A stretch of 64,000 bases of DNA from Candidatus Bathyarchaeota archaeon (GCA_963833575.1 CAWHXY010000006.1:192001-256000); one strand, 5' to 3'. Positions 1 through 14,036 are shown, numbered from the stretch's first letter. Numbers and translations are program-made. Notes: generated by a model from the sequence alone, not told the origin.

Positions 1-432
1 ACTAATTATCCCTGAATGAACAAACAAGGTCAATCCAAGTTCATGCTTAATTCTTTTAAATGTTTGAACGAATCCATCAAGAGGCACTGAGCCATCAGGC
101 AAACATCCTCCACTGACAAGGCAGCCTAGAGCCCCACCTTGTTTAAGCTTTAAGCATAAATCGAAAAGTTCTTTTTCTGATAACACAGGGTGCATAGTTT
201 GCAGTACTTTGCCCCCACAATGCTTACAGTTCAGGGTGCAAGATGTTCCAGTTATAGAAATTGTCGGAAAATCCGTTGTTGATGAACAGAAATATTTTGT
301 TTTGTAATAAGTAAAGCTTGGGGCATAGAAATGGATTTTCTTAGGTTTCAGTGCTAACTCCGCTTTCTCTAATAGGTTTAAAACCTCTTTTTGATTTAGT
401 TTCCAAATTTCTTCTGGAGAGAGCTGAAACAT
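1..432 (-). CDS. Radical SAM protein, biotin-synthase-like COG1856 / LipS1-like (5' part only; runs off window edge)
   Basis: Manual translation from ATG at 432: MFQLSPEEIWK...FPTISITGTSCTLNCKHCGGK...GCLVSGGC; CxxxCxxC motif; no stop before position 1; absent from ORF track. Confidence 0.8.
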   Translation of the reverse strand, partial: MFQLSPEEIWKLNQKEVLNLLEKAELALKPKKIHFYAPSFTYYKTKYFCSSTTDFPTISITGTSCTLNCKHCGGKVLQTMHPVLSEKELFDLCLKLKQGGALGCLVSGGCLPDGSVPLDGFVQTFKRIKHELGLTLFVHSGIIS

Positions 433-662
433 TCTTTTCAATGTAAGAATTAACTGTGTGGCTTATGAGTTTAGCGCAAACACAGTTTGCTAGCGGATTT
501 TCCAGCGCGCTTTCGATAGTTGAATCAGCACATTCACATCCAAGCTATATAAGCGCTTCAAGCAAGGTAGCGATTATTTTTCCGACATATTTTTTATTAA
601 GGAAATATAATAATTACAACTCAGAGCTTGAACATTTTTTGACGATACTTTCAGGATAGATT

Positions 663-1619
663 ATGAACCGAAAAGACCTTTTTCAATTATTCAAGACGTC
701 ATTCAAAGATTGGCGAGAAGATAACGTTACATTGCGAGCAGCGGCGTTAACATTCTTCATAATTCTACCCCTGCCATCATTGCTGCTTATAGTGGCTGCA
801 ATTTATGCTATGTTTGTTGGTCAAACTTATGCTGCACAACAGGTGATTCAACAGATTACTTCTTTGGCCGGACCTGCTGTTGCGGGACTATTCAATGAGC
901 TGCTTGCAAGCTCATCGTCACCCTTCACCTCTCTCTGGGGAGCTCTCACTTTGGTAGTTTTTTCAGTAGCGGGGGCAATAGGCACATTTGCCGTCTTACG
1001 TGACATAATGGATGTAATATGGGAAGTTAAATCTCCTCTTAGAAAACCGAATTTTTCAATAAGAGTTAAACAAAGAATTGGGCCGTTTATCGTCGTTTCT
1101 GGGCTTGGATTGATTGTAATAGCTTGGACAGGAATAGCAACCCTTCTGTTTAGTGCGATAAGGTTATATTCAATAAATGGAACGTTAACGTTTGTTGCCG
1201 TCGAGATAGCTCAAGTTCTGCTGTCGTTTTGTTTGGCAACACTACTTTTTGCGCTGATTTACAAAGTAATTCCAGAAGTAAGAGTTCATTGGATAGACGT
1301 AATCTTGCCTGCGGTAGTTACAGGCATTGCCTTTACCGTCGCGAATTATTTCTTAGGCATTTACATTCGAATCTTCACAGTGACCACAATAATTGGTGCT
1401 GCAGGCTCACTGATTATTATTTTATTATGGATTTTTATTTTAAATCAAATTGTTTTATTTGGCGCTGAGATCTCTAAGGTTTACGCTACAACAATTGGTC
1501 CTCATCCAAAACAACATTTGCCCGGTAGAGTGGAAAAGATACTTACAGCTTTAGATGAAGCAGAAGAAAAAATAGAAGAAGCAACAGGAAAAAACGTCGA
1601 CACCCACGGAGAAAACTAA
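663..1619 (+). CDS. YihY/BrkB family inner membrane protein
   Basis: AAALTFFIILPLPSLL N-terminal motif, about 6 TM helices, LLWIFILNQIVLFGAEI C-terminal motif. Confidence 0.85.
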   Translation: MNRKDLFQLFKTSFKDWREDNVTLRAAALTFFIILPLPSLLLIVAAIYAMFVGQTYAAQQVIQQITSLAGPAVAGLFNELLASSSSPFTSLWGALTLVVFSVAGAIGTFAVLRDIMDVIWEVKSPLRKPNFSIRVKQRIGPFIVVSGLGLIVIAWTGIATLLFSAIRLYSINGTLTFVAVEIAQVLLSFCLATLLFALIYKVIPEVRVHWIDVILPAVVTGIAFTVANYFLGIYIRIFTVTTIIGAAGSLIIILLWIFILNQIVLFGAEISKVYATTIGPHPKQHLPGRVEKILTALDEAEEKIEEATGKNVDTHGEN

Positions 1620-1748
1620 ATCAACTCTTAGAATGCTCATAATCCGGTCCTTAGACCTTTTGCTAAATTAATTTATGCATTGCTACCAAGATTTCAGGAT
1701 TTTTACAGGAGCGATTGCCGTTTAGGAAGTATTTTTCCTGACGTATGC

Positions 1749-2171
1749 TTACCATCTGAGAACTAATTTGATTACGCCTAGTGCTATTCCCATAGATACT
1801 ACACCGCTAATTATTGTTCCCACGATCAATGGAGGATAAAATTTTTTGGACTGAATACATAGCAGACGGCCAATAATTGCTACCTGTATTGGTGAGAGCA
1901 AAAACATCCCAAATATTATGCCTATCCAAGCATATTTGTTAATGATTCTTTGACCTCTAGCTGTTCTTTTTTCGAGCCAACTTCTGAAGCCTTTCTTCCA
2001 TTCAAGTAGTCTTTCAACAACTAATATGGAAGCAAAAACCGTTAACATATTTATTGTGAGAGTCGATGCAAAAACCAATATAGGGTTGAATCCGACGGCG
2101 ACTCCATAAAGCATGCCTCCTAGGCATTCAAAGACGATAGATATGAGAATGTAGATAAAGATCTCGTACAT
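1749..2171 (-). CDS. Small membrane protein (putative small multidrug export / DedA-like)
   Basis: 140 aa, 3-4 hydrophobic segments, INKYAWIGII motif. Confidence 0.55.
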   Translation of the reverse strand: MYEIFIYILISIVFECLGGMLYGVAVGFNPILVFASTLTINMLTVFASILVVERLLEWKKGFRSWLEKRTARGQRIINKYAWIGIIFGMFLLSPIQVAIIGRLLCIQSKKFYPPLIVGTIISGVVSMGIALGVIKLVLRW

Positions 2172-2230
2172 TCATCCACCACTTCGTAGAGCAATAATCC
2201 CAATAACGGGAGTACATGGTTATTTTGAGG

Positions 2231-2308
2231 TGGTGGGCCGAGCCGGATTTGAACTGGCGACCTTTCGATTATCAGTCGAACGCTCCAGCCGTGCTGAGCT
2301 ACCGGCCC
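2231..2308 (-). tRNA. tRNA-Ile(GAU), intronless, CCA encoded
   Basis: Reverse complement GGGCCGGTAGCTCAG...TTCGA CTGATAA TCGAA...GTTCAAATC...CGGCCCACCA folds as cloverleaf; anticodon GAT. Confidence 0.95.
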
Positions 2309-2403
2309 ACCTTGTGAAGCACAGAACTTAATATAATGTTAGTTTATAAGAATTGTCATAAATCTTTTAATGCTACACCATTATTGCTTGTTTTGTTAAG
2401 AGT

Positions 2404-2482
2404 GGGCTCGTAGCCTAGCACGGATTAAGGTGTCGGCCTTCGGAGCCGGAGATCGTGGGTTCAAATCCCACCGGGCCCGCCA
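2404..2482 (+). tRNA. tRNA-Arg(UCG), intronless, CCA encoded
   Basis: GGGCTCGTAGCCTAG...TCGGC CTTCGGA GCCGG...GGTTCAAATCC...CGGGCCCGCCA cloverleaf; anticodon TCG. Confidence 0.95.
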
Positions 2483-2649
2483 CATAAATTTTTGCCTCCT
2501 TGCCTCAAAGTCCTAAACCACAAATGCAACTCTAAAATTGCGACTCTTAGCCACCCGACTACGACATTGATCACAGCTTTTGTGACAATTGCAAACGACG
2601 CACACAACGTTAAGTCTCAATTTCTAGAAAAGACACTAAGCGACACTAC

Positions 2650-3357
2650 ATGAAGACTACAAACGTAATCGTTTTCCTCTTTGTAATAGTCTTATTAGTA
2701 ATTTCTGGAAATGCTGCGATGGTTCAAACACAATCTTCACAAACACAAATCCTTACCCATGATTTTGGCGATAACGCCGAAATCAATTCGGCAGACACGA
2801 ACGTTTTTGCCTATGATGTAAGTCAAAGTTTGGAAAATGAACCAAATGGCGGATGGGTAAGCGACAACATTTACCAAGTAAACTGGACTATACGGCTCGA
2901 CTATATTAACCAAGATATCATTAATGGCAGCAGTTACATTCTCTTCTTTTTGCCCTCACCTTTAGATACGAATTCCAACGTCGCGACACAAGCTATTACA
3001 AATCAAACGCAACTGAACCTTACTCAGAAAACTGGAACATTATGCGTAACGTTCAAACCCGAGAATATCACAGGCTACTTCTTTAGTCTCAATCTCCGAT
3101 TTGCAGTCTACATTAACGGCGTAATTGCAACGAATCATTTGAGAACCGATGCTTCTCAAAACGCAGGATTTTCAACCGAGATATCTCAAAACACAGAATT
3201 CTCACCCAATACATTAAGTAATGAAAACTCATTGGAAGTAGCACAAGCCCCAGAGATTCCATCGTTAGCGGTTGTAACAACGCTGTTGATTGCAGTCTTT
3301 GTGATCAGTTTAGTACTGTTGATGGTAAGAAAACGTATTGCAAACCACCCAACCTGA
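2650..3357 (+). CDS. Secreted/surface protein with PEF-CTERM-like C-terminal sorting signal
   Basis: N-terminal signal peptide; many N-x-S/T sequons; C-terminal APEIPS + TM helix + RKR. Confidence 0.65.
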   Translation: MKTTNVIVFLFVIVLLVISGNAAMVQTQSSQTQILTHDFGDNAEINSADTNVFAYDVSQSLENEPNGGWVSDNIYQVNWTIRLDYINQDIINGSSYILFFLPSPLDTNSNVATQAITNQTQLNLTQKTGTLCVTFKPENITGYFFSLNLRFAVYINGVIATNHLRTDASQNAGFSTEISQNTEFSPNTLSNENSLEVAQAPEIPSLAVVTTLLIAVFVISLVLLMVRKRIANHPT

Positions 3358-3370
3358 CAATCTTGTTTGC

Positions 3371-3778
3371 TCATTTATTGAGCAAAGAAATAATGAAACT
3401 TTGTATTTCCTCAAGACGAGATTGAAGGCTATCCAGAGCTGTTTTACCCGAATCTCCCAAAGCGTAAAATCTGGTTTTTTTATCTGGAATTACCTTAATG
3501 TATCCTCTCCGTTCTAGTTTGTAGAGAATAGAATATAGGGTGCCAGGGCTCATTCGAATATCATATTTTTTGAGGAAGAAATCTATTATATCCGGAGCAC
3601 TTAGAGCTTCCTTTCTAGTCAATTCTTCCAGAATCGCAATATCTGAGAATGCCTTAAGGAGCTTCCGTTTTTCTTCCAACACGAATTTATTGTCAAAAAC
3701 TGGATCAACTGTTGAATTTTCCAAAAAACTAGTTGGCTCATCGCTAAGGTGGATTCTATCTACCATTCCCACACACAC
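3371..3778 (-). CDS. PadR family winged-helix transcriptional regulator
   Basis: SPGTLYSILYKLERRGYI...YALGDSGK PadR signature. Confidence 0.85.
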   Translation of the reverse strand: MCVGMVDRIHLSDEPTSFLENSTVDPVFDNKFVLEEKRKLLKAFSDIAILEELTRKEALSAPDIIDFFLKKYDIRMSPGTLYSILYKLERRGYIKVIPDKKTRFYALGDSGKTALDSLQSRLEEIQSFIISLLNK

Positions 3779-3928
3779 TCGAAGCTCAATTGTTATTCTT
3801 CAGATTTAAAACTATCGCTTGCACTATATTCGGCAAAGCTTTAATTCAGAATTCGTTTATAGGAAACATCTTGAGGGTGTGTGCGTGCGTTTACTAACAT
3901 GTAACTTTAGGTTGGGAGGGGTGAGGGA

Positions 3929-5404
3929 ATGAATCAAGACTTTGTTATGAAATTAATCAGGTATCCGCCAGTTGGAAAATTGGCGTTGAACATGATGAAA
4001 AACAACGCCCTCAAACCATTTCTTATTTCATCCAAAGTTATTGCTGAGAAACAAGAAAAAATATTAAGAAAGAAGTTTCGAATTTTAGAACATACAGAAA
4101 TTGGAAGAAAACTCGGCGTAAAAGAGGGAGGAAAGCTAGAAGCACTTCCAGTTACAGATTATGAGTTTTATGCGCCTTTCTTCAACAATCCTTCTTCGAA
4201 CTCTCTAATGTATCCATTGAATGAATACGAACGAACAAGAACCAGCGGCACATCGGGAAAAGAGAAGTGGTTTTTGATACCGAGAAGCTATATCTACAAA
4301 TCAATAATTGAGACTGCTATACAAGTCCAACTTTTCTCTACTCATGATGGTGATAAAATTAGGTTGGATTATGGCGATACGATTTATATTAACACTGCTC
4401 CAAGGCCATTTTTAGGGGGAGTAATGGTTTCAGTGGCTTCTGGCAAAAAAGAAAAACCACCATTATTCAATGTGGTGCCTAATTTTAATATTTCATTTGA
4501 GGATAAAGTAAAATATTTTACTAATAATTGTGACCAAATAGATGTTGCTGTTACTCAAGCGTCCATACTTGTATCTCAAATAATGCCTGCTGCAAAAAAG
4601 GCTGTAAATCTGAAAGGATTATTTTGTCCAGACACTACTATTGCTGAGTCGTACTTTGATGAAATACAAAAATTCACTGGAGTCACGCCTAGAACTGCTT
4701 ATGGCTCGACTGAAACATTACATTGTTCAATCCCATCAGTGCAACATCCGCTGGGTTTCTTTCTAGACTGGAGACGAGGCTTTTTTGAGTTTAAATCTTT
4801 GAAACATGAAGAAGAAAAAGAAATAGTGGGCATTGATCAAGTAAAAGTTGGCGAAGTTTACCGAGTAATATTTACAAATCTTGAAGCGGATTTAACCCGT
4901 TATAACACGTCAAATTCGTTCAAATGTATTGCCACTGGAGATGATATTCTTGGCATTGATTACCCCATTTTCAAGTTCCATTCAAGATTAGATAAAACAA
5001 TTTCTCTGCACAACTTTACAAGGATAAATGAAAATGAACTCACAACAGCTTTGAAGGAAAGCAAAATACAGTGTGTCGAATTTGTAGCCAAGAGTGAAAT
5101 AACCGAAGGATTAGAATACCTGACACTTTATTTGGAGACCACAGATTGTCAAAATAAAGAAGATATTTCAAAAGCAATCCATAAAAGCCTTTATCAAATG
5201 GACGAGGCTTACAAGGATCTAGTCGATTTTTACCATTATTCTCCAATAAAAGTGGTTCTCTTACCTGAAGGTACTTTCGGAAAATACTTGACGCTAAAAG
5301 CTGCAACAGTTTCAAAAGTTGGAAGGATTGAGATGCCTGATGAAGAAATTAATAAGCTGATTCAAATAGCCAAAAGTAAGGACAACACATGGCAATCGAC
5401 CTAA
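3929..5404 (+). CDS. GH3 (auxin-responsive promoter) family acyl-acid amido synthetase-like adenylating enzyme
   Basis: LPVTDYE, motif I TSGTSGKEKWFLIP, motif II AYGSTE, FFEF, VGEVYRVIFTN...LTRY. Confidence 0.8.
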   Translation: MNQDFVMKLIRYPPVGKLALNMMKNNALKPFLISSKVIAEKQEKILRKKFRILEHTEIGRKLGVKEGGKLEALPVTDYEFYAPFFNNPSSNSLMYPLNEYERTRTSGTSGKEKWFLIPRSYIYKSIIETAIQVQLFSTHDGDKIRLDYGDTIYINTAPRPFLGGVMVSVASGKKEKPPLFNVVPNFNISFEDKVKYFTNNCDQIDVAVTQASILVSQIMPAAKKAVNLKGLFCPDTTIAESYFDEIQKFTGVTPRTAYGSTETLHCSIPSVQHPLGFFLDWRRGFFEFKSLKHEEEKEIVGIDQVKVGEVYRVIFTNLEADLTRYNTSNSFKCIATGDDILGIDYPIFKFHSRLDKTISLHNFTRINENELTTALKESKIQCVEFVAKSEITEGLEYLTLYLETTDCQNKEDISKAIHKSLYQMDEAYKDLVDFYHYSPIKVVLLPEGTFGKYLTLKAATVSKVGRIEMPDEEINKLIQIAKSKDNTWQST

Positions 5405-6552
5405 ATCTCTTAGCAGAGACGGCTAATTCGCTGGTCACTATAACCTGCGGTCTATTGCTGATATATCTTATTCAACGTGGAAAACTGCAGCATAATCGAT
5501 TTTATTACAGTTGGTCCGCAGGTTTTATTTTGTATGGAGTTTACATTTTTTTGAGGCCCTTATCCGCAAATGTTTTGATCGATATTCCTATGGTAATTGC
5601 ATTTCTCATTTTCATTCCATTTTCAATGTTCACATTGAATTCTCAGAAAAATGTAACCGCGCTAATTTTTGCTGCTACAATGCTTATCGTTATTTTGTTT
5701 GTGCCTTTTTCATATTTTGGTTATCTTAAGGAGAGTGTGTCTTTTTGGATTATCTCGTCTGTACTTTTTTACTTACCCGTTACTATTGTTATAGCAACGC
5801 ATAGAAAAATTTTTGGAAGTAGTGTAGATAAGTTTTTGATAGGCTGGGTTTCGCTATTTCTTGTAAACATCTTCTTTCCACTAGGAAACTGGATAACGAA
5901 TGCTCTTGCAATTGGGTGTAAACTTTTTTTGTTCATGGGGCTATTGGATTACGATTTTGCCATAGCTACAGAAAAAATCCGAAAAGGACTAGCGCCAAGT
6001 AGCCTGTCCCCAATTTCTGGGAATTGCGCTAAGGATGAAGGTGGCTTCGAACTCGTGCTGCTTAAACCCAGGGCAGAAGCTCCTTTGCCAATTGTGTCAA
6101 AATGGCTAGTTGATCACGTTGAGAAAAACATAAGTGGAAATGTTGAAACGACAGTTCTAATCTTGCAAGATGTTCTTCCCTATAATGTTGTACGGTCAAT
6201 CGTTTGGAGCAAGCCAAATCTTATTCGCGTTCTCTTCTTTTCTGATGGAGTTTCTTCAAGCAATCAAGAATTCAAAACTCTAAAATTTGGCGTAACTGAA
6301 ATAGGTGCAACCATCAATGAGGTAGCAAAATCAGAATCTAAAGCTAACCAATGCGGCGAAATAATCATAGTGGACCTTTCAATTATGATTTATAAGTTTG
6401 GAGTTAACCAAGTTTATGACTTATTATTGAACAAAATGGGAATTTTAAGATCCAATGGAACTAAATTGATAGCTCTTTTTCACCCACAGGCGCATGAAGA
6501 TCGTGTGACAGCTCTTTTCAAAACAATTGCCAATCGCATAACGAACTTGTAA
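5389..6552 (+). CDS. Membrane sensor-like protein: about 7 TM N-terminal domain + C-terminal inactive RecA/KaiC-like (DUF835-type) domain
   Basis: Seven hydrophobic segments in the first ~190 aa; C-terminal IIIVDLS...VYDLL...LIALFHPQAHEDRVTALFKTIANRI resembles DUF835, with no Walker A; overlaps the GH3 stop. Confidence 0.65.
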   Translation: MAIDLNLLAETANSLVTITCGLLLIYLIQRGKLQHNRFYYSWSAGFILYGVYIFLRPLSANVLIDIPMVIAFLIFIPFSMFTLNSQKNVTALIFAATMLIVILFVPFSYFGYLKESVSFWIISSVLFYLPVTIVIATHRKIFGSSVDKFLIGWVSLFLVNIFFPLGNWITNALAIGCKLFLFMGLLDYDFAIATEKIRKGLAPSSLSPISGNCAKDEGGFELVLLKPRAEAPLPIVSKWLVDHVEKNISGNVETTVLILQDVLPYNVVRSIVWSKPNLIRVLFFSDGVSSSNQEFKTLKFGVTEIGATINEVAKSESKANQCGEIIIVDLSIMIYKFGVNQVYDLLLNKMGILRSNGTKLIALFHPQAHEDRVTALFKTIANRITNL

Positions 6553-6686
6553 AAAGAACAAAGCCACAACTTAGATGCTATCTTAAGATAAAGAATTGCA
6601 AAGGTTCTGGAGACATTTTTAGCTGTAGATTAGCTACAAATTTGATAAACTTCTTCAGAAAAACTTACCAACGAAGGACGAGCTTG

Positions 6687-7412
6687 TTAAATTCTGATGG
6701 TTTCTGATGCGAATACTCTTAGTCCATTCTCTGTAATTTCATATTTTCGCGGTTGGTCGTCATGGGCTGTTCCTCTCATTTTTTCTACTCTGATTGTTTT
6801 AGTGACCAGAAAGTTCCGTAGTGTCTGTGCCATGATGATAACGCCGTCAGCTAGGTATTCTTCCACGTAGAAGTCATCTTCTGAGGGTGAGGAAGATTCA
6901 GAGGTTATCACTGAGGTGCACTTTAGTTTTCGTAGCGATTTTATTAATTCGAGGATTTCAAGTCTTTTGTCAGTTGGAAACCGCTGATGAATTATTGCGC
7001 TTGTAATAGGGTCAACAACTAGTCTTGTTGCTCCAAAACTTTCTGCTTCAATTACTATTTGATTAACGATTTGAGAGATCACTGGTTTGGGCGAGTTATA
7101 ATTGCTTTTAATTTCCTCACTGAATTTGAAGACCAATGGGCTGCCATCAATTAATTTGAGCATATTCTTTTTTTCCAGTTTCTCCAAATCTAAGCCTACA
7201 CTCGCTGCAGCCATTCTAATTGAGTCAATAGGTTCTTCAAGCGTTAGGTAGATACCTTTCTCCCCTTTTTTTGCACCTTCAGCAATAAATTGAAGAGAAA
7301 AAATAGTTTTCCCAGTTCCTGGTCCACCGCGAACTAAGATTATCTTGTTTTCGAGAAAACCTCCACCAAGCATCTCGTCTAAACCCGTTACGCCGGTCGA
7401 TATTCGAATCAT
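6687..7412 (-). CDS. KaiC-like RecA-superfamily ATPase (single domain)
   Basis: ISTGVTGLDEMLGGG, Walker A GGPGTGKT, TLEE, RLVVDP, EEYLADGVI, VEKMRGT. Confidence 0.92.
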   Translation of the reverse strand: MIRISTGVTGLDEMLGGGFLENKIILVRGGPGTGKTIFSLQFIAEGAKKGEKGIYLTLEEPIDSIRMAAASVGLDLEKLEKKNMLKLIDGSPLVFKFSEEIKSNYNSPKPVISQIVNQIVIEAESFGATRLVVDPITSAIIHQRFPTDKRLEILELIKSLRKLKCTSVITSESSSPSEDDFYVEEYLADGVIIMAQTLRNFLVTKTIRVEKMRGTAHDDQPRKYEITENGLRVFASETIRI

Positions 7413-7676
7413 CTTTTATCGCTTAAACTACTTAGATGTTTGTTATATATTTATTAATGAAGCAAACTAAGAAGTTTTCATCTCCGCACGAATTCCATCG
7501 CTAAATTGGATATTTTCAAATTTAATAGATAACTACACAAATGTCTTCCATTAAGCATACAAAGACAAATTTCTTAGAAATATTATGAATGATTGTGCCA
7601 TATTTTTGTTGGCAACCTTGCACGGTGACAAAGCTTTTATGCTGTTTGAAACAAAACAATTACAGAGGTTTTTAAA

Positions 7677-8240
7677 ATGTCGTTGGAGTCAGGAAAAAAT
7701 TTGGGCGGTATTGGATCAATATTTTTGGTAATTCCGGTGCCATTTCTAAGCATTGTAGGCATAATACTTGTTCTGATAGGCATGAAAAATTTGTCACAGG
7801 CATATAATGACGAAAGTATCTGGAAGAACACAATTTACGCAGTAGTCTTTGGAATCATAGGAATAGTCGGTGCAGGGTTGGCGCTTTTCTCAGTGTTTTT
7901 CGGATCGATTATTTCTGGCGCAACTTTAGGAGCAGGAGGAGGCTTAGCAGGATTTTTTGTAGGACTTATAGTATTTCTCTTTGTTGCTTTCATATTCTAC
8001 ATACTTGAAGCCATCTATATTCGAAAAGCATTTGATTCCCTCGCAAACAAATCAGGAGTCGGGCTATTCAGAACTGGAGGATTGCTGCTGCTCATCGGTG
8101 CGGTTCTTACAATCGTCTTAGTTGGTTTATTCTTGATCTTCATTGCCTGGATACTGATACTTGTCGCATTCTTCCAAATACCAGTAAATCCAACTTCACC
8201 GCAGACCCAGATGCCTTCGCCACCACCAACAATGACCTAA
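7677..8240 (+). CDS. DUF996 family membrane protein
   Basis: KNLGGIGSI...GIILVLIG...LFRTGGLLLLIGAVLTIVLVG...IAWILILVAFF pattern. Confidence 0.8.
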   Translation: MSLESGKNLGGIGSIFLVIPVPFLSIVGIILVLIGMKNLSQAYNDESIWKNTIYAVVFGIIGIVGAGLALFSVFFGSIISGATLGAGGGLAGFFVGLIVFLFVAFIFYILEAIYIRKAFDSLANKSGVGLFRTGGLLLLIGAVLTIVLVGLFLIFIAWILILVAFFQIPVNPTSPQTQMPSPPPTMT

Positions 8241-8485
8241 ACCCCTTTTTTCCTTTTTAAATAGCGGTAATGGCTATTTGTCATTAGAATTGGATAATGT
8301 TTGTTGAGGCTCTGGAAAAAATTTTTCTTTAAGAGAAAAGAATGCAATGAAATTAGCTATAACTACATTATTTGGTAAACGGATGTCATGCTTTTCAAAT
8401 GTGTCTTTCTCTGGTTAGTGCTTAACAAGAATGATTCAACACTGTTATATTTTGCGAGCTTACTAGAAAGTATAGGCGACAGTTT

Positions 8486-8929
8486 TTGAAAAAAGAATTG
8501 ACAAGTAGTATTGACGTAAATGGCTCGCCCGCCGAAATCTGGTCGGTGCTTACAGATTTTGCAAATTTTCCCATCTGGAATCCTTTTATGCGGTGGATAA
8601 AAGGTGACTTAAGGAAAGGGGCAAAACTTGAAGTGCGGATTCAACCTTCAGGGGCAAGAGGAACAACCTTCAAACCGACAATTCTCACTGTTGATCCGCC
8701 CAAGGAGTTGCGGTGGATCGGGCATCTTTGGACAAGTGGTCTCTTTGACGGAGAACATATCTTAAATATTGAACCCATCGGAAAAAATAAGGTTCGTTTC
8801 TACCAAAAAGAAATCTTTAATGGGCTTTTTGTCAGGGTTCTTGCAAAAAGTCTAGACAAGGATACCCTAAGGGGATTTAACGAAATGAATGAAGCCTTAA
8901 AAGAACAAGTTGAAAAGAGCCATAACTGA
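8486..8929 (+). CDS. SRPBCC/START (polyketide cyclase-like) family protein
   Basis: IWSVLTDFANFPIWNPF...ELRWIG...GLFDGEH...GFNEMNEALK. Confidence 0.85.
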   Translation: MKKELTSSIDVNGSPAEIWSVLTDFANFPIWNPFMRWIKGDLRKGAKLEVRIQPSGARGTTFKPTILTVDPPKELRWIGHLWTSGLFDGEHILNIEPIGKNKVRFYQKEIFNGLFVRVLAKSLDKDTLRGFNEMNEALKEQVEKSHN

Positions 8930-9080
8930 TAACTTTTTGACAGTAGTGAGCTTATGTTTTCATCGAGGAAAAGCAGAATATTTAGCCGGAAACAATGCGC
9001 TCAATTAGGTGACATAGTCAATTATTGTTAGTACAGTCGGCCTTTGAACTGGCTGTCTATTTTTTTTGTTTTCGACACAA

Positions 9081-9488
9081 TCAGCAGAATGTCAAAGTCG
9101 AATGTTCTCTGCGAAGTGATGAACTCGTCGAGATCATATGGGCTGTTTGTGTTGGGATTTTATTGTCGTTTGACATACTTTTAACGATAAAGTTTAGTGA
9201 GTTTTCGGTGAAGTTCAAGACATTTTTACCTTCGTTAGTGAGCGTGTACATTTTTCGTGGTCTTTCTGCATTCATGTTCCAAATGCTCTTTACGTAGCCT
9301 TTTTTCTCAAGTAATCCTAGCAGGGGGTAAACGGTACTGGGTCCGAAGTAGACACCGAAGCCTTTGCGGATTTTTGTGATAATCTGGTATCCGTGCATGG
9401 ATTCTTTGTCGAGATATTGAAGAACAATCAGGTCTAAGAGGCCTTTAGTGAGTTTTGTTTGAGTTTCTTTTTGGTAATTATTGTTCAT
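9081..9488 (-). CDS. PadR family transcriptional regulator
   Basis: KGLLDLIVL...MHGYQII...GPSTVYPLLGLLEKKGYV...RPRKMYTLTNEG. Confidence 0.92.
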   Translation of the reverse strand: MNNNYQKETQTKLTKGLLDLIVLQYLDKESMHGYQIITKIRKGFGVYFGPSTVYPLLGLLEKKGYVKSIWNMNAERPRKMYTLTNEGKNVLNFTENSLNFIVKSMSNDNKIPTQTAHMISTSSSLRREHSTLTFC

Positions 9489-9850
9489 TTTCTATATTTT
9501 TCCCCTGGTTTTGTTGTTGAAATGTGCAATGTTTTCTTCCAAGACACATTTCTTATGTCTTCATAGTACGTAAACTGACACATAAACCCTCGCACATAAC
9601 GCAAGCATATAAAAACTACACAGAACCCACTACTGTCGAACACAAAAACAGGTCAATACGTAAAATTTCTCCAAAAAAACAAAATATTTAGGTTAAGAGA
9701 AGCTGTACAACGAATCAACAGAAAAATGAGTTGGACACCAAGTTTACCAGAACCCTCACTATACAACCTCAGACGAAACCTCATAACTTGTTTCTTTACT
9801 GTATTCCAAAGCACTTAGTTTAGGCTTTATAATGAAGCAAGCTTAGTAAA

Positions 9851-10180
9851 GTGTGTGGGAAAACAGAATTGGAATATTTAATTCTCTTAATTTCAATTCT
9901 TCTAACATGCATAATCTTAAACCTGGTATTCAAACTTCAACTCTTCGAATCATCAAAACAAGCAGTGATTGTGCTTGTTTCTCTTTTTGTAATTGGAACA
10001 GTTTTAGACAGCTTCGCAGTTTTGAGAGGATATTGGAGCTACAATGAAAACGCAAACTTTTTTGTAGGGATAAAAATCGGTGTATTGCCGATTGAAGAAT
10101 ATCTCTTCATGATAGTTATTCCCTATCTAACACTAACCGTCTTTGGATTAATAAAAAAGACAAGCGCAGTTCATCAATAA
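9851..10180 (+). CDS. Lycopene cyclase domain (CrtYc/d-type) membrane protein
   Basis: D..AV.RGYWSYN...GIKIGVLPIEEYLF signature, 3 TM helices. Confidence 0.75.
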   Translation: MCGKTELEYLILLISILLTCIILNLVFKLQLFESSKQAVIVLVSLFVIGTVLDSFAVLRGYWSYNENANFFVGIKIGVLPIEEYLFMIVIPYLTLTVFGLIKKTSAVHQ

Positions 10181-10189
10181 AAAAACAGA

Positions 10190-12490
10190 TTAGAATACTG
10201 AAAGGCTTTTTTGTTTTTGTTCTCGAACTGACTTGCAGATAGAATCCGTTGTATATCCTTCAAAGTTGAGCAAATTTGCCGCTGCCGAGTAAAGAAGCAT
10301 GAGGTATTTTTCGGTGTCAGGCTTTACGCCTTTCTCAATTAGTTGAGCTGCTTTGACTCGTCGTTCATGCCGCTTATCTTTGGAATGCGTAAAAAGGAAT
10401 CTTACGCTGTTTCCCGCATGTACTTCCGCCCCCTCTTTGATCAGTTGCTCTGCTGCGATAACCTGGCTGACATGCTGACGGTATCGCTCCGGCTTTCTTG
10501 ACATACGCTTAGTAATAATTAGGTCCTCAACAGGCACTTCACCATCCAGTAGTTTCTGTCGATAAGTTCTCACAATCTCCAGAGCAAGAGGAATTTTCTT
10601 GCGCAACTCAGCAGTGTTGTTCGCCGTAGCCAATGTGTTAATCATTTCTGTTTGAGCATCAAACACAAATCGCGGTGTGTCTCTTCGTCTGATTTCTAAG
10701 CCGCGTACCTTGATTTTGCCATCTTCCATTACTCCATAGTAGCGGTTCAGCACACCTACGCGTGGATGAGTTTTCGAAGGTAAGAAAACGATCCATTTGT
10801 AGCGACCTTCAAAGTTAATGGGTATCCCTGATTGCGCAGTTATTATTTGGCATAGATTTTCATAGTCTTCTAGGCTGGCATCTGGTTTTTTGAGCCAAAG
10901 CGAATCGACAATGCCGTGAATAACTTCAAACCCTCGCTCCTCTGCGGTATGCGATGCCTTCAGCAGGGCTTCTCTGCCAAAAGCGCAGACCCCAATGTGG
11001 CCATCTACTGTTCCGAATTTGGCGTTTTTGTAACCTAAATAGCCAAAGCAAGTGACCAGGATCCATTTGAGAGCAGTTTGCCGGTTATCGTAAACTTCTC
11101 TGAGATGAGGATCAGAGGCTTCTTTTTTCATTCTCTTATAATGGAGACGTTTGTCTACCACGAATCTTAGAGTTTTAGGAACAATGCCAGTGCGTTTAGT
11201 GCATATATGATAGTTGAGTTCCGGGATGCGTATATATGAGTCTGGACAGCATTTGCAAAGAACAGTTTCTGCGGATATGTTGTTGTTTGCCATTATGCTG
11301 GGATACATGCTGCTGAAGTCTACTTCGCCGACATAATCATGAGCGCCCACAATGGGTTCATAGACGAATCCGCCGCGGTCGCCAACTAGGAGATCATATG
11401 CGGATTTGAAGGCTTCAGGGATGCTTTTGTTTCGTGGAATAAGCACGTCATCTTTTATGGCTTGATAGAATGGTAGCGAGGACATGCTTGAGCCTATGGA
11501 GTTTCTTGCTGCAGTGTGAAGTGGTACTCGGCATGTTCTTGTGATTTCAATCAATCCGTCGAACCCTGCTTCAGATAAAACAAAGGTGTTGCTCTGGTCG
11601 ATGTGGATTCTTCCGTAAAGCCTAATGGGTCCAGCTTTGTAGAAAGTTCGTCCATAGGAAAAAAATGTTTTACCTGAAGGCGTTTTTGAAGAAAATGGCG
11701 TACCATCTCTGCTCAAAGTAAATTTGTCAATAATGTTGTTTATCGTTGCTCGTTCTGTTAGGTAAGGAAAAAGGTGCGAGTCCCCGCCGGAAGTCACCAA
11801 GAAGTCTGGATCAAGTTCTCGGACCACTTTAACGAGTTGCTGTAGTTTCTCTAACTCGTCGCCGGAATCGATTGGTATTTCGTTTTGGTCTTGGCTTAAC
11901 CGAATTGTACCTATGGGATCTTTGAAGTTGGCAATTTTGTTTTTCTTAGCAATTTCAACCTTTAATTTCATTATTCGCAAGGGAGGAATAGCATAATCGG
12001 TGCTGGCTACCGAATCGAGCAGAGTGTATTGGAGACCTGTTTTTTCTACCTTAACTTCCAAAAGTGCCAAGGGAAAGATGTCGTGGCTGAAAAAGTAGTC
12101 GCGGTCTCCTCTCAAGTCGCAATTAGAAACCTGATAACGCAGGTAATCCCCCATCTTTAGGATGATGTTTGTTAGGCTCTGGATTCTTCTACAGTCTCTA
12201 AGTACAAGCTCCAGAACTTTGGTTTTCTCTGAATCTGTAGGCTGAGCATACTTGTAAGCAAAACTCCATTTTGCAATGTCTGAGTTGTTGTAGAGTTTGC
12301 CAATTAGGGGGTCAATATTTTCTTGTTTTGATGAAACATAGATTTTGGGTTGGAACTTATCAATTAAACGTATCCTTTGACCTGCTTCGCTTATAATCCA
12401 GACTGCGATTTCACCTTCGTTTGAAGGGTAAGCATCAAGTATCCAGCCCTTAATTTTGCAAGGACTACTGACTGAGAGCAAAGAAAACAC
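10190..12490 (-). CDS. polB2: Family B DNA polymerase, PolB2 group
   Basis: VDFSSMYPSIM (motif A), KWILVTCFGYLG (motif B), HGIVDS replacing YGDTDS (motif C), degenerate exonuclease domain. Confidence 0.85.
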   Translation of the reverse strand: MFSLLSVSSPCKIKGWILDAYPSNEGEIAVWIISEAGQRIRLIDKFQPKIYVSSKQENIDPLIGKLYNNSDIAKWSFAYKYAQPTDSEKTKVLELVLRDCRRIQSLTNIILKMGDYLRYQVSNCDLRGDRDYFFSHDIFPLALLEVKVEKTGLQYTLLDSVASTDYAIPPLRIMKLKVEIAKKNKIANFKDPIGTIRLSQDQNEIPIDSGDELEKLQQLVKVVRELDPDFLVTSGGDSHLFPYLTERATINNIIDKFTLSRDGTPFSSKTPSGKTFFSYGRTFYKAGPIRLYGRIHIDQSNTFVLSEAGFDGLIEITRTCRVPLHTAARNSIGSSMSSLPFYQAIKDDVLIPRNKSIPEAFKSAYDLLVGDRGGFVYEPIVGAHDYVGEVDFSSMYPSIMANNNISAETVLCKCCPDSYIRIPELNYHICTKRTGIVPKTLRFVVDKRLHYKRMKKEASDPHLREVYDNRQTALKWILVTCFGYLGYKNAKFGTVDGHIGVCAFGREALLKASHTAEERGFEVIHGIVDSLWLKKPDASLEDYENLCQIITAQSGIPINFEGRYKWIVFLPSKTHPRVGVLNRYYGVMEDGKIKVRGLEIRRRDTPRFVFDAQTEMINTLATANNTAELRKKIPLALEIVRTYRQKLLDGEVPVEDLIITKRMSRKPERYRQHVSQVIAAEQLIKEGAEVHAGNSVRFLFTHSKDKRHERRVKAAQLIEKGVKPDTEKYLMLLYSAAANLLNFEGYTTDSICKSVREQKQKSLSVF

Positions 12491-12746
12491 CTGTAGGGAC
12501 TTCCGCTTATTCTGGAAATCCTTTAAAAGAAATTCGTCTAAACGACTCCTGAGCTCAGTGGAGAGTAAGGTGAAAATAAAAATACTTAAGCCTTAAAAAA
12601 TCTTACCGGACCTGCTTCTTACGTGTTAAATCTTATTTCTCAGCACATGAAAATAAAAATCACTTGAACTAAAAGTCTCTTTGCAAATCTGCAAAGTCCA
12701 CTTCACAAAAAACATTAAGTTATCAAGGCGAATATATTCCGTGTTG

Positions 12747-12929
12747 ATGGGTTTGCCAAAATCTCGTATGGTTAGAAGGCAGTCCTCAAACGGTGAGATT
12801 CACTTTATCATCCCAGACGATAAGTTTGATGCGACTAAGGAAACAATAGAAGACTTTGATGATCTTCAAATAAGAATAATTATGAAACAGGAAGCTTCCA
12901 AACCACTTTTGCTATTACGTACAGAGTGA
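12747..12929 (+). CDS. Small hypothetical protein
   Basis: ORF with plausible composition; start uncertain (12747 or 12768). Confidence 0.4.
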   Translation: MGLPKSRMVRRQSSNGEIHFIIPDDKFDATKETIEDFDDLQIRIIMKQEASKPLLLLRTE

Positions 12930-13085
12930 AGGCGTCTCATCTGGAATTTTAACCGTTTGGTTACAAATGGCTATGCAAATATTTTTCTAAAATGTTGCTT
13001 TCCATGGTTTTTAACTCTTTTTTCGCAAATTTTATATCTACCTGCTTAGCTCTAACAACAAGAGGTAGTGTGGGGGAGAAATGAC

Positions 13086-14036
13086 ATGGTAGATATACTC
13101 TTAGTTTTCGCAATAATAGTACCATTAATAGTTTTAATATACGCGTTTTTTTCAACAATTCGAATTGTGAGACCAACTGAAAAAGGATTAGTTGAACGGT
13201 TGGGCAAATACCGCAGATTTGTTGAAGGAGGCGTCACATTCCTTTTCCCATTTATTGATCGCATCATAAAAGTCAACATCACCGAGCGCATGACGCCTGT
13301 ACAACGCCAAGATGTCATAACAAGAGATAAAGTGTTCATGGGCGTAGACGCCGTCGTATTCTACAGAATCAAACAAGACGAAATATCAGTGAAAGCTTCT
13401 CAGTACAACGTGGCAAACTTTTCAGCGCAAATAGACACTTTGGCACGAACAGTGCTAAGAGACATCATAGGCGGCATGGACATGAGCGTAGCTAACACAT
13501 CTAGACCCATAATTAACACCAGCCTCAAAACAGCCCTCGACGAACAGACAGAGAAATGGGGAATCGAAATCGTCAGAGCGGAAATCAAAGACCTAGAACC
13601 CCCAAAAGAACTAATCATATCCATGGAATCCGTGCTCAAAGCAGATAACGACAGACAAGCAGCTGAGAAAACTGCTATAGCTCAAGCAACCCTGGCAAGC
13701 GGACAAAAAAATGCTGCGATTCAAGTCGCCGAAGGACAAAAGCAAGCCGCGATCCTACAAGCAGAAGGCCAGAAAACAGCAACCATCGCCATAGCCGAAG
13801 GAGATGCACAAGCAACCAAACTAAGAAACGAAGCCTTAACAACCTACTTCAAAGACAGCGCCATCGTGTTTAAGCAACTGGATACAATCACATCCTCATT
13901 ACAAAACAACACAAAGATCATTGTCCCCGAAGGCAAAGCCATATCATTAATCCTAAACGAACAAGAAAACCTATCCAAAGCAACCATCATCCCAATAACA
14001 CAGCCAGCACAACAAAAAAGCAGCAAACAAATGTAG
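13086..14036 (+). CDS. SPFH/Band 7 (stomatin/QmcA-like) protein
   Basis: N-terminal TM, GLVERLGKY, QDVITRD, WGIEIVRAEIKDL, AEG-repeat coiled coil. Confidence 0.92.
   Translation: MVDILLVFAIIVPLIVLIYAFFSTIRIVRPTEKGLVERLGKYRRFVEGGVTFLFPFIDRIIKVNITERMTPVQRQDVITRDKVFMGVDAVVFYRIKQDEISVKASQYNVANFSAQIDTLARTVLRDIIGGMDMSVANTSRPIINTSLKTALDEQTEKWGIEIVRAEIKDLEPPKELIISMESVLKADNDRQAAEKTAIAQATLASGQKNAAIQVAEGQKQAAILQAEGQKTATIAIAEGDAQATKLRNEALTTYFKDSAIVFKQLDTITSSLQNNTKIIVPEGKAISLILNEQENLSKATIIPITQPAQQKSSKQM

Follow-up and report, generated by a model that had tools for sequence, protein, structure and literature searches.

A conserved gene cassette of Bathyarchaeia that links a GH3-like ligase, a seven-helix membrane protein and a KaiC-family ATPase

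A 64,000-nucleotide (nt) stretch of a Candidatus Bathyarchaeota archaeon genome (GCA_963833575.1 CAWHXY010000006.1:192001-256000; hereafter the window, with positions counted from its first letter) carries three adjacent genes that encode a GH3-like ATP-dependent acyl-acid amido synthetase, a membrane protein that joins a seven-transmembrane-helix (7TM) domain to a RecA-fold tail, and a single-domain ATPase of the KaiC family. It is near certain that these genes form a real, conserved module, the members of which stay linked through repeated changes in their order. More tentatively, we interpret the module as a conserved, horizontally mobile signalling unit of the Bathyarchaeia that comprises these three core genes and, as an accessory, a gene for a PadR-type regulator. 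GH3-type ligases are known from the control of plant hormones, and the idea that archaea signal through KaiC-like ATPases and inactivated relatives of these has been derived by computation, with very few experiments behind it; Makarova, Galperin and Koonin reportedly proposed in 2017 that membrane DUF835 proteins together with KaiC-like ATPases act as archaeal signal-transduction hubs. Chemical cell-to-cell signalling in archaea is, to our knowledge, poorly known.

Linkage of the GH3, 7TM and KaiC genes

The GH3-like gene (3929-5404, plus strand; 491 amino acids, aa) and the gene for the membrane protein (5389-6552, plus strand; 387 aa) share 16 nt (5389-5404), and the gene for the KaiC-family ATPase (6687-7412, minus strand; 241 aa) is convergent to this pair, 134 nt beyond the stop of the membrane-protein gene. 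On the other side, a gene for a PadR-like winged-helix regulator (3371-3778, minus strand; 135 aa) is divergent from the GH3 gene, with a 150-nt spacer between the two (3779-3928). A first-pass annotation of the window had described the same layout, i.e., four genes with a 16-bp overlap, a divergent PadR and an intact, convergent KaiC, and the open reading frames (ORFs) lie where it had placed them. Its proposal implied that the genes would be found together in other genomes, which is borne out for the 7TM and KaiC genes by the surveys that follow.

Among 60 related genomes searched, the 7TM gene was found in four, in all of which the convergent KaiC gene adjoins it; a close GH3 gene is present in two of these four genomes and a remnant in a third. 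Distant GH3 paralogues (543-567 aa) occur in four related genomes, without a 7TM or KaiC gene in flanks of ~1.5 kb. Scanning all species-representative genomes with a 7TM profile returned eight loci, titled Bathyarchaeia, Bathyarchaeota or Thermoproteota, five of which hold the full trio. Metagenomes were surveyed by a GH3-profile scan, followed by hidden Markov model searches of six-frame ORFs, and this yielded 78 GH3 loci, of which 64 have the 7TM gene, 45 have the KaiC gene and 41 have both. In most of the 14 loci without a 7TM gene, the sequence breaks off at one side of GH3 after no more than a few hundred bases. At the loci with at least 2.5 kb on each side of GH3, the 7TM gene is adjacent in 18/18 cases and the KaiC gene is present as well in 15/18.

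The order of the genes varies between loci. With arrowheads giving the orientation, the most frequent arrangements are GH3>7TM>KaiC< (19 loci), KaiC>GH3>7TM< (8), KaiC>GH3>7TM> (7) and 7TM>GH3>KaiC< (5), next to others, and five gene orders require at least seven changes on the GH3 tree of 38 distinct complete trios. That the linkage has outlasted repeated rearrangement is, of the evidence assembled here, the strongest for a joint function of the genes. Of 27 co-directional loci, 25 have a 7TM gene that begins at -17 to +33 nt relative to the stop of GH3. Across 31 complete loci, the pairwise protein distances of GH3 and 7TM are correlated with r = 0.95, against 0.71 for GH3 and KaiC and 0.69 for 7TM and KaiC, with shared descent contributing to all three correlations.

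Several loci depart from the common structure. Split forms occur twice in one genome (G538; L133 4012-6618 and L134 4232-6884), where a tail-only gene, GH3 and a 7TM-only gene are co-directional and overlapping, and KaiC is absent from the locus; another genome has the arrangement 7TM>GH3>7TM>KaiC<. At L016 (genome G046), L025 and L090, GH3, 7TM and/or KaiC are fragmented by stops or deletions, and the cassettes apparently decay as a unit.

Where 7TM and KaiC genes are adjacent and convergent, their 3' ends overlap in 22 of 27 pairs; the overlap is exactly 11 nt long at 19 loci and 14 nt long at the other three. The loci with such overlaps (e.g., L015, L017, L020, L021 and L036-L047) share only 30-50% protein identity, and the overlap could serve antisense or termination coupling. 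The window and the 93%-identical locus L032 nest within the clade in which KaiC lies upstream, so their downstream KaiC is a secondary relocation, which accounts for the 134-nt gap in the window in place of an overlap.

Predicted properties of the encoded proteins

The GH3-like protein was assigned from Pfam domains and from profile comparison with solved structures. With the Pfam family models (PF03321, PF23571 and PF23572), GH3_M reaches 27.1 bits (cut-off 23.6), and the GH3 N-domain (22.3 bits) and GH3_C (16.9 bits) are both below their cut-offs. In a search of solved structures with the single sequence, JAR1 was the sole match at E ≤ 0.01 (E 6e-6); among the weaker rows, up to E 1, were GH3.5/GH3.6 but also a designed protein and a polymerase polyprotein of no relation. 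With a profile built from 14 relatives, the PDB gave six matches at E ≤ 0.01, all of them plant GH3 amido synthetases, with E-values of 1.2e-7 for JAR1 and 2.3e-4 for GH3.12, then GH3.8 and GH3.5. Through a word-indexed search, 76 relatives were found at 23-94% identity, nearly all 460-495 aa long and most with a precomputed PF23571 match. Their source names are "hypothetical protein" or "GH3 auxin-responsive promoter"; in one entry the protein is assigned to Bathyarchaeota. A scan with NCBIfam returned no model that matches the GH3-like or the 7TM protein.

PMC12493201 gives three nucleotide-binding motifs for GH3 enzymes, SSGTSxGxxK (motif 1), YGSSE (motif 2) and YRxGD (motif 3). Motifs 1 and 2 are conserved in the window protein as T105SGTSGKEK113 and Y258GSTE262, respectively, with T105, S106, G107, T108, G110, K113, T261 and E262 invariant or nearly so among 23 relatives. 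At motif 3, T323 and R324 are conserved, and many relatives have an Asp at the position of the JAR1 Asp. In addition, a C-terminal K463/R466 pair is nearly invariant among the relatives. Judged by these residues, the protein is probably still functional as a GH3-type adenylating ligase, and its predicted chemistry, in line with its family, is the ATP-dependent joining of an acyl acid and an amino acid. Like the plant enzymes JAR1/GH3.11, GH3.12/PBS3, GH3.5 and GH3.8, it has all three Pfam domains at a detectable level and keeps motifs 1 and 2. Unlike them, it is about 85-120 residues shorter (491 vs 575-613 aa), matches at E-values of 1e-7 or weaker, has Asn for Asp in motif 3, and is encoded in an operon with a putative receptor.

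A prokaryotic enzyme to which the cassette ligase can be likened, by description and not by sequence, is the GH3-like OlsH of Singulisphaera acidiphila. According to PMC12493201, OlsH uses a free acid, ATP and an amino acid to make an N-acyl amino acid, forming N-acyl ornithine from a free fatty acid in the first step of ornithine-lipid synthesis, so that N-acyl-amino-acid chemistry is established outside plants. The partner of OlsH is the alpha/beta-hydrolase OlsI, which acts in lipid synthesis, and not a 7TM/KaiC pair; an OlsI-like gene is not recurrent in the cassette loci.

The seven-helix, sensor-like domain of the membrane protein (residues 1-205; 5389-6003) was assigned from structure models. 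Searches of PDB sequences with the 7TM protein or its profile returned nothing meaningful. A full-length AlphaFold2 model of the 387-aa protein, built from 19 homologues, has a predicted local distance difference test score (pLDDT) of 79.4; in it, a linker helix connects seven membrane helices to an alpha/beta domain (residues 219-386). The membrane half, modelled from a natural stand-alone homologue of 206 aa and 44 other rows, reached a pLDDT of 91.4 and a predicted template modelling score of 0.85. When this 7TM model was compared with 48,161 PDB representatives, the top 50 structural matches were all G-protein-coupled receptor (GPCR), rhodopsin or PAQR-type bundles (Z 13.5-9.9), and transporter folds were absent from these 50. 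The best match is a designed GPCR-like fold (Z 13.5 over 185 aa at 3.7 Å), and the others include GABA-B and GPR156 (Z 12.4), rhodopsins (Z 10-12.3) and the 7TM lipid-amide hydrolases ACER3 (Z 12.0) and adiponectin receptor 2 (Z 10.8). Foldseek comparison with bacteriorhodopsin gave TM-scores of 0.55-0.60 with E-values of only 0.03-0.1, which are non-significant.

Aligned over 45 sequences, the membrane protein has in its full length just two residues that never vary, N13 in helix 1 and K178 in helix 7, and W42, G45, F46, G152, W153 and N160 are nearly invariant. Since the most conserved residues are polar and membrane-buried, they suggest a small-molecule site, into which an amphiphilic GH3 product would fit. 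The positive-inside rule would place the N-terminus outside and the tail in the cytoplasm. The helix-7 Lys had also raised the possibility that the domain is a true rhodopsin, which was dropped because a conserved counter-ion Asp is not seen four positions before the Lys, where there is an Ala, and in helix 3, at what we take to be the corresponding residues of bacteriorhodopsin.

The predicted cytoplasmic tail (residues 206-387; 6004-6552) superposes in VIA-align on RecA (4psv; Z 13.0, 146 aa, 3.2 Å), on Rho (Z 12.8) and on the KaiC-like FlaH (4yds; Z 12.8 over 150 aa), with aligned lengths of 146-152 residues. Its best Foldseek domain match is the archaeal RecA-superfamily ATPase PH0284, and a GK[ST] P-loop is absent from the whole 387-aa sequence. 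Aligned in hhalign, 60 family members match six DUF835 domains drawn from related genomes, two of which are themselves sub-threshold Pfam matches, with a probability of 93.3% (E 2.7e-7, 104 columns), compared with 0.2% and 1.2% for controls against KaiC. The same method gave no similarity between the tail family and the neighbouring KaiC family, and no match to one single HisKA_7TM-DUF835 sequence. Five of 28 distant members have sub-threshold tail matches to DUF7504, and the ESM Atlas returned the family's own cluster together with DUF835-, MEDS- and KaiC-bearing clusters at 0.82-0.90, which are leads only. By profile similarity, and not by a Pfam call, the tail is thus a remote relative of DUF835, a family labelled as inactivated KaiC by Galperin et al. 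2018 (PMC5847659). In the first-pass annotation, the tail had been called an inactive RecA/KaiC-like domain of DUF835 type; the superpositions and the missing P-loop agree with this, and the DUF835 label stands as a remote profile relationship but not as a match to the Pfam model. When the complex of KaiC with tail residues 203-387 was predicted from alignments of both, the score was 0.00 (mark, 0.32), which counts neither for nor against binding.

In contrast to the tail, which lacks the P-loop, the neighbouring KaiC-family protein has intact catalytic motifs. It matches PF06745 with 201 bits, as the sole strong match to this model in its genome, and its Walker A motif (G29-T36), catalytic Glu pair (E59/E60) and Walker B residue (D134) do not vary among the 38 KaiCs compared from cassettes. 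Orthologues with at least 48% identity were found only in genomes with a 7TM gene, plus one at a contig edge, and the next best sequences have at most 39%. The KaiC of the circadian clock has two tandem KaiC domains, about 500 aa, and the partners KaiA and KaiB. Such a clock protein was rejected as an identity for the cassette KaiC, which has one domain (241 aa) and scores 113 bits on circ_KaiC (NCBIfam) against a cut-off of 546, with no KaiB-like gene seen among its neighbours.

The PadR-like protein of the window is a marginal match to PF03551 (28.6 bits vs a cut-off of 27). Four of five scanned cassette-linked relatives score 37-47 bits on the same model, and the fifth, from L026, has 21 bits and is below the cut-off. 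When neighbouring genes were clustered over 89 other loci and the window, PadR-like proteins of 111-156 aa were the fourth most recurrent neighbour family, and they adjoin the cassette in 17/89 other loci, in three arrangements. PadR is, therefore, a real but optional accessory rather than a constant member: it recurs with the cassette, but only in a minority of loci. Phenolic acids are the classical effectors of PadR regulators. Alignment of the PadR-GH3 spacer with those of L032, L082 and L063 revealed the invariant blocks CAGATTTA.AA, CAAAGCTTTAATT and TATAG, and the GH3 proteins of these four loci are only 47-93% identical. The spacer probably consists of two back-to-back archaeal promoters, and a candidate operator within it is possible. 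A 141-aa protein without a Pfam match adjoins the PadR gene in six loci, including L036, L041, L054, L063 and L082, and a MoxR/CbbQ-type AAA ATPase and a VWA protein recur near the cassette in 5-7 loci, L015 and L047 among them.

Distribution, mobility and genomic context

The membrane protein belongs to a small family. Searched exhaustively with a profile, a set of 1.84 billion representative proteins contained only 110 relatives, 49 of them at E ≤ 1e-30, nearly all of which are ~380 aa long or fragments. Exceptions show that both halves of the protein are modular: stand-alone 7TM proteins of ~205 aa occur, a receiver (REC) domain is fused to the tail in one relative (P0159), and in another (P0163) the 7TM domain is accompanied by a weak, sub-threshold match to the response-regulator output domain NitrOD5 (25.6 bits vs a cut-off of 27). 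The family was found in 48 of 401 sampled Bathyarchaeia genomes, 39 of these in a single taxonomic family of 71 genomes, which often have 2-4 copies per genome; in the window's own taxonomic family it is present in 1/103 genomes. Among 401 genomes sampled across the phylum there were three holders, all Bathyarchaeia.

In the window, the cassette lies downstream of tRNA-Ile (2231-2308) and tRNA-Arg (2404-2482), the only two features that an Rfam scan of positions 1-14000 returned. The first-pass annotation had noted an AT-rich block about 1 kb from tRNA-Arg, in keeping with the measured 0.9 kb between this tRNA and the 3' end of the PadR gene and with a G+C content of 37.1% in the cassette block, compared with 40.9% in the window, which is among the lowest 2.5% of same-size windows. 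A segment of ~10.5 kb (2483-13067), from the tRNA pair to a conserved gene, is absent between the same flanks in a genome of the same genus (G003). This extra segment, together with the low G+C of the block, suggests that the lineage acquired DNA laterally, though by no evident mechanism: neither an att-like direct repeat of the tRNA nor an integrase was found in positions 2200-13300 of the window, which does not support a recent integrase-mediated insertion. Near two other copies (L017 and L025), tyrosine-recombinase-like genes were recognised by reading translations. PADLOC gave no defence match for GH3 or 7TM and only weak P-loop matches for KaiC, and no relative was found in a scan of 2.9 million viral contigs. 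A look-up of sequencing runs listed no RNA run as a holder of the sequence, and the single DNA run listed shared a 0.14 fraction of its words.

The segment beside tRNA-Arg also encodes a 235-aa secreted or membrane protein and a 109-aa membrane protein, as well as a 766-aa family-B DNA polymerase, named by reading its translation, the gene of which lies within 10190-12490 on the minus strand. This stretch has three matches with 68% nucleotide identity in one same-genus genome (G001), which suggests paralogues or an element-borne polymerase. Downstream of KaiC (7677-9488), the window encodes a DUF996 membrane protein, an SRPBCC (polyketide-cyclase-like) ligand-binding protein and a second PadR that is stronger on Pfam (60.5 bits); in the neighbour clustering, none of these three was conserved with the cassette in other loci.

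A candidate signalling circuit and its alternatives

Like the membrane DUF835/KaiC pairs, the cassette combines a seven-helix N-terminal domain with a P-loop-less RecA-fold tail of ~170 aa. Its membrane protein is of nearly the same size as a HisKA_7TM-DUF835 protein at L122 (387 vs 388 aa), and both have a convergent single-domain KaiC neighbour. True 7TM-DUF835 genes are convergent with KaiC genes at L122 (genome G330) and at L124 (G013), the latter from the same genus as the window, so this genus also has the canonical version. Unlike classical DUF835 proteins, the cassette protein has no Pfam DUF835 or HisKA_7TM match and forms a separate, compact family, and unlike the classical pairs it is tied to a GH3-like ligase gene. 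The cassette is, in this respect, a KaiC/inactivated-KaiC hub with a new, tightly bound enzyme partner. Full-text literature searches, which did not reach Makarova et al. 2017, found no description of GH3 paired with 7TM/KaiC (most of the papers listed use "GH3" for glycoside hydrolase family 3), and a search for such terms within PMC6393860 found no such pairing.

A functional analogy exists with LuxI/LuxR, the bacterial two-gene pairs of signal synthase and receptor. The cassette resembles them in having adjacent genes for an enzyme and a putative receptor that diverge in step, with several diverged copies per genome, whereas the protein families are unrelated, and a product that leaves the cell or reports cell density would be a further, hypothetical resemblance.

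The mechanism that we favour is built around GH3 and 7TM as a translationally coupled pair. In the cytoplasm, the GH3-like enzyme would adenylate a carboxylic acid with ATP and link it to an amine, most likely yielding an amphiphilic conjugate of the acyl-amino-acid type. The invariant, membrane-buried Asn of helix 1 and Lys of helix 7 would form the ligand site of a GPCR/rhodopsin-like bundle, and the conjugate, or its precursor acid, would fill this membrane pocket. The tail would relay the state of the pocket to the adjacent, catalytically intact KaiC, as in the proposed membrane DUF835/KaiC pairs, and where a PadR-type repressor is present it would link this state to transcription of the divergent operon. 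We put this complete chain forward tentatively, as a proposition with somewhat less than an even chance of being right. A bolder version, a hormone- or quorum-like archaeal system based on GH3, in which each ligase would make its own conjugate, read in the membrane by a cognate receptor through the helix-7 Lys and helix-1 Asn and passed to KaiC through the dead tail, is possible but, in our judgement, on the unlikely side.

Several observations weigh against the favoured mechanism. KaiC is absent from 3/18 fully flanked loci (L077, L085 and L091) and from both split-form loci, so that relay through KaiC is not obligatory; PadR is present in only 7/18 fully flanked loci; L073 has KaiC and GH3 without a 7TM gene within 4.6 kb downstream; and a solo 7TM gene occurs in one genome (L135). 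Many of the loci come from related samples and several are near-duplicates, and the counts overstate independent cases. Within the proteins, Asn replaces the terminal Asp of the plant GH3 motif 3 in the window enzyme and its closest relatives, and the membrane protein has zero Pfam matches at E ≤ 10, including HisKA_7TM (PF16927). For the DUF835 model of Pfam (PF05763), too, searches came back empty, whether of the window protein (E ≤ 10), of the whole genome (E ≤ 1) or of 28 distant members (E ≤ 0.1). The helical-bundle matches of the 7TM model at Z 10-13.5 may reflect a common arrangement of helices only, not homology. Moreover, the chemistry of the product, its identity with the ligand, the contact between tail and KaiC, which the first-pass annotation pictured as hetero-oligomers, the control by PadR, pictured there as a feedback loop, and the quorum- or hormone-like character are all steps that we infer, and the tight coupling and co-divergence of GH3 and 7TM fit a direct enzyme-receptor complex equally well.

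Such a complex is central to the main alternative, in which the receptor controls the enzyme: the 7TM/DUF835-like protein and KaiC would sense an unrelated external or membrane cue, and the docked GH3 ligase would be the output, conjugating, and thereby activating, inactivating or storing, an intracellular carboxylic acid, with a product that is not the ligand of the receptor. The GH3-7TM link is the tightest of the cassette (18/18, overlap of start and stop, r = 0.95), the position of GH3 between the tail gene and the 7TM gene in the split forms suggests a physical complex, and the fusion to a receiver domain is an example of the tail acting as an output or transmitter module. Docking is, however, hypothetical, the multiple diverged copies with their own enzymes are more simply understood as matched pairs of ligand and receptor, and the polar, membrane-buried nature of the most conserved residues speaks for a small-molecule site. 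We regard this alternative as unlikely, if deserving of serious weight. We judge a metabolic or envelope role improbable. Here GH3 would either make an amino-lipid-like N-acyl amino acid or render an aromatic or fatty acid harmless by conjugation; the product would be inserted, flipped or exported by the 7TM protein, with KaiC for energy or assembly and PadR as the sensor of the acid. This role has a precedent in the N-acyl ornithine of OlsH (PMC12493201). It could draw, in addition, on the presence of ACER3 and adiponectin receptor 2 among the fold matches and on phenolic acids as classical PadR effectors. Yet the top 50 structural matches hold no transporter fold, a second acyltransferase is not recurrent in the neighbourhood clusters, and the tail and the 7TM domain have been shuffled with signalling domains (receiver and, weakly, NitrOD5), not with metabolic ones. 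DUF835/KaiC pairs are, moreover, regarded as signalling parts (PMC5847659), and the patchy distribution and frequent decay of the cassette argue against a core role in the envelope.

The patchy range (48/401 Bathyarchaeia, 1/103 in the window's own family), the low G+C, the 10.5-kb segment beside tRNA-Arg that is absent from a same-genus genome, the tyrosine-recombinase-like genes near the copies at L017 and L025, and the decay at L016, L025 and L090, would also be expected if the trio were an accessory anti-virus or competition system carried on variable segments. We consider such a conflict or defence function very improbable, given that PADLOC was empty for GH3 and 7TM, that the viral contigs hold no relative, that the window segment has no att-like repeat or integrase, and that the neighbours are not defence genes.

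Whichever of these functions applies, the cassette places GH3-type ligases in a conserved receptor partnership in the Bathyarchaeia. It also presents a compact, testable case, with an enzyme that can be assayed, two receptor residues to mutate, an ATPase as read-out and a candidate operator. Since no genetic system exists for the Bathyarchaeia, which are abundant in sediments, a cassette that is complete in itself and can be transferred into a heterologous host is of value. If the signalling interpretation is true, this would be the first hormone- or quorum-like archaeal system built on GH3 chemistry, and the several diverged enzyme-receptor pairs per genome in one family of Bathyarchaeia would represent insulated signalling channels.

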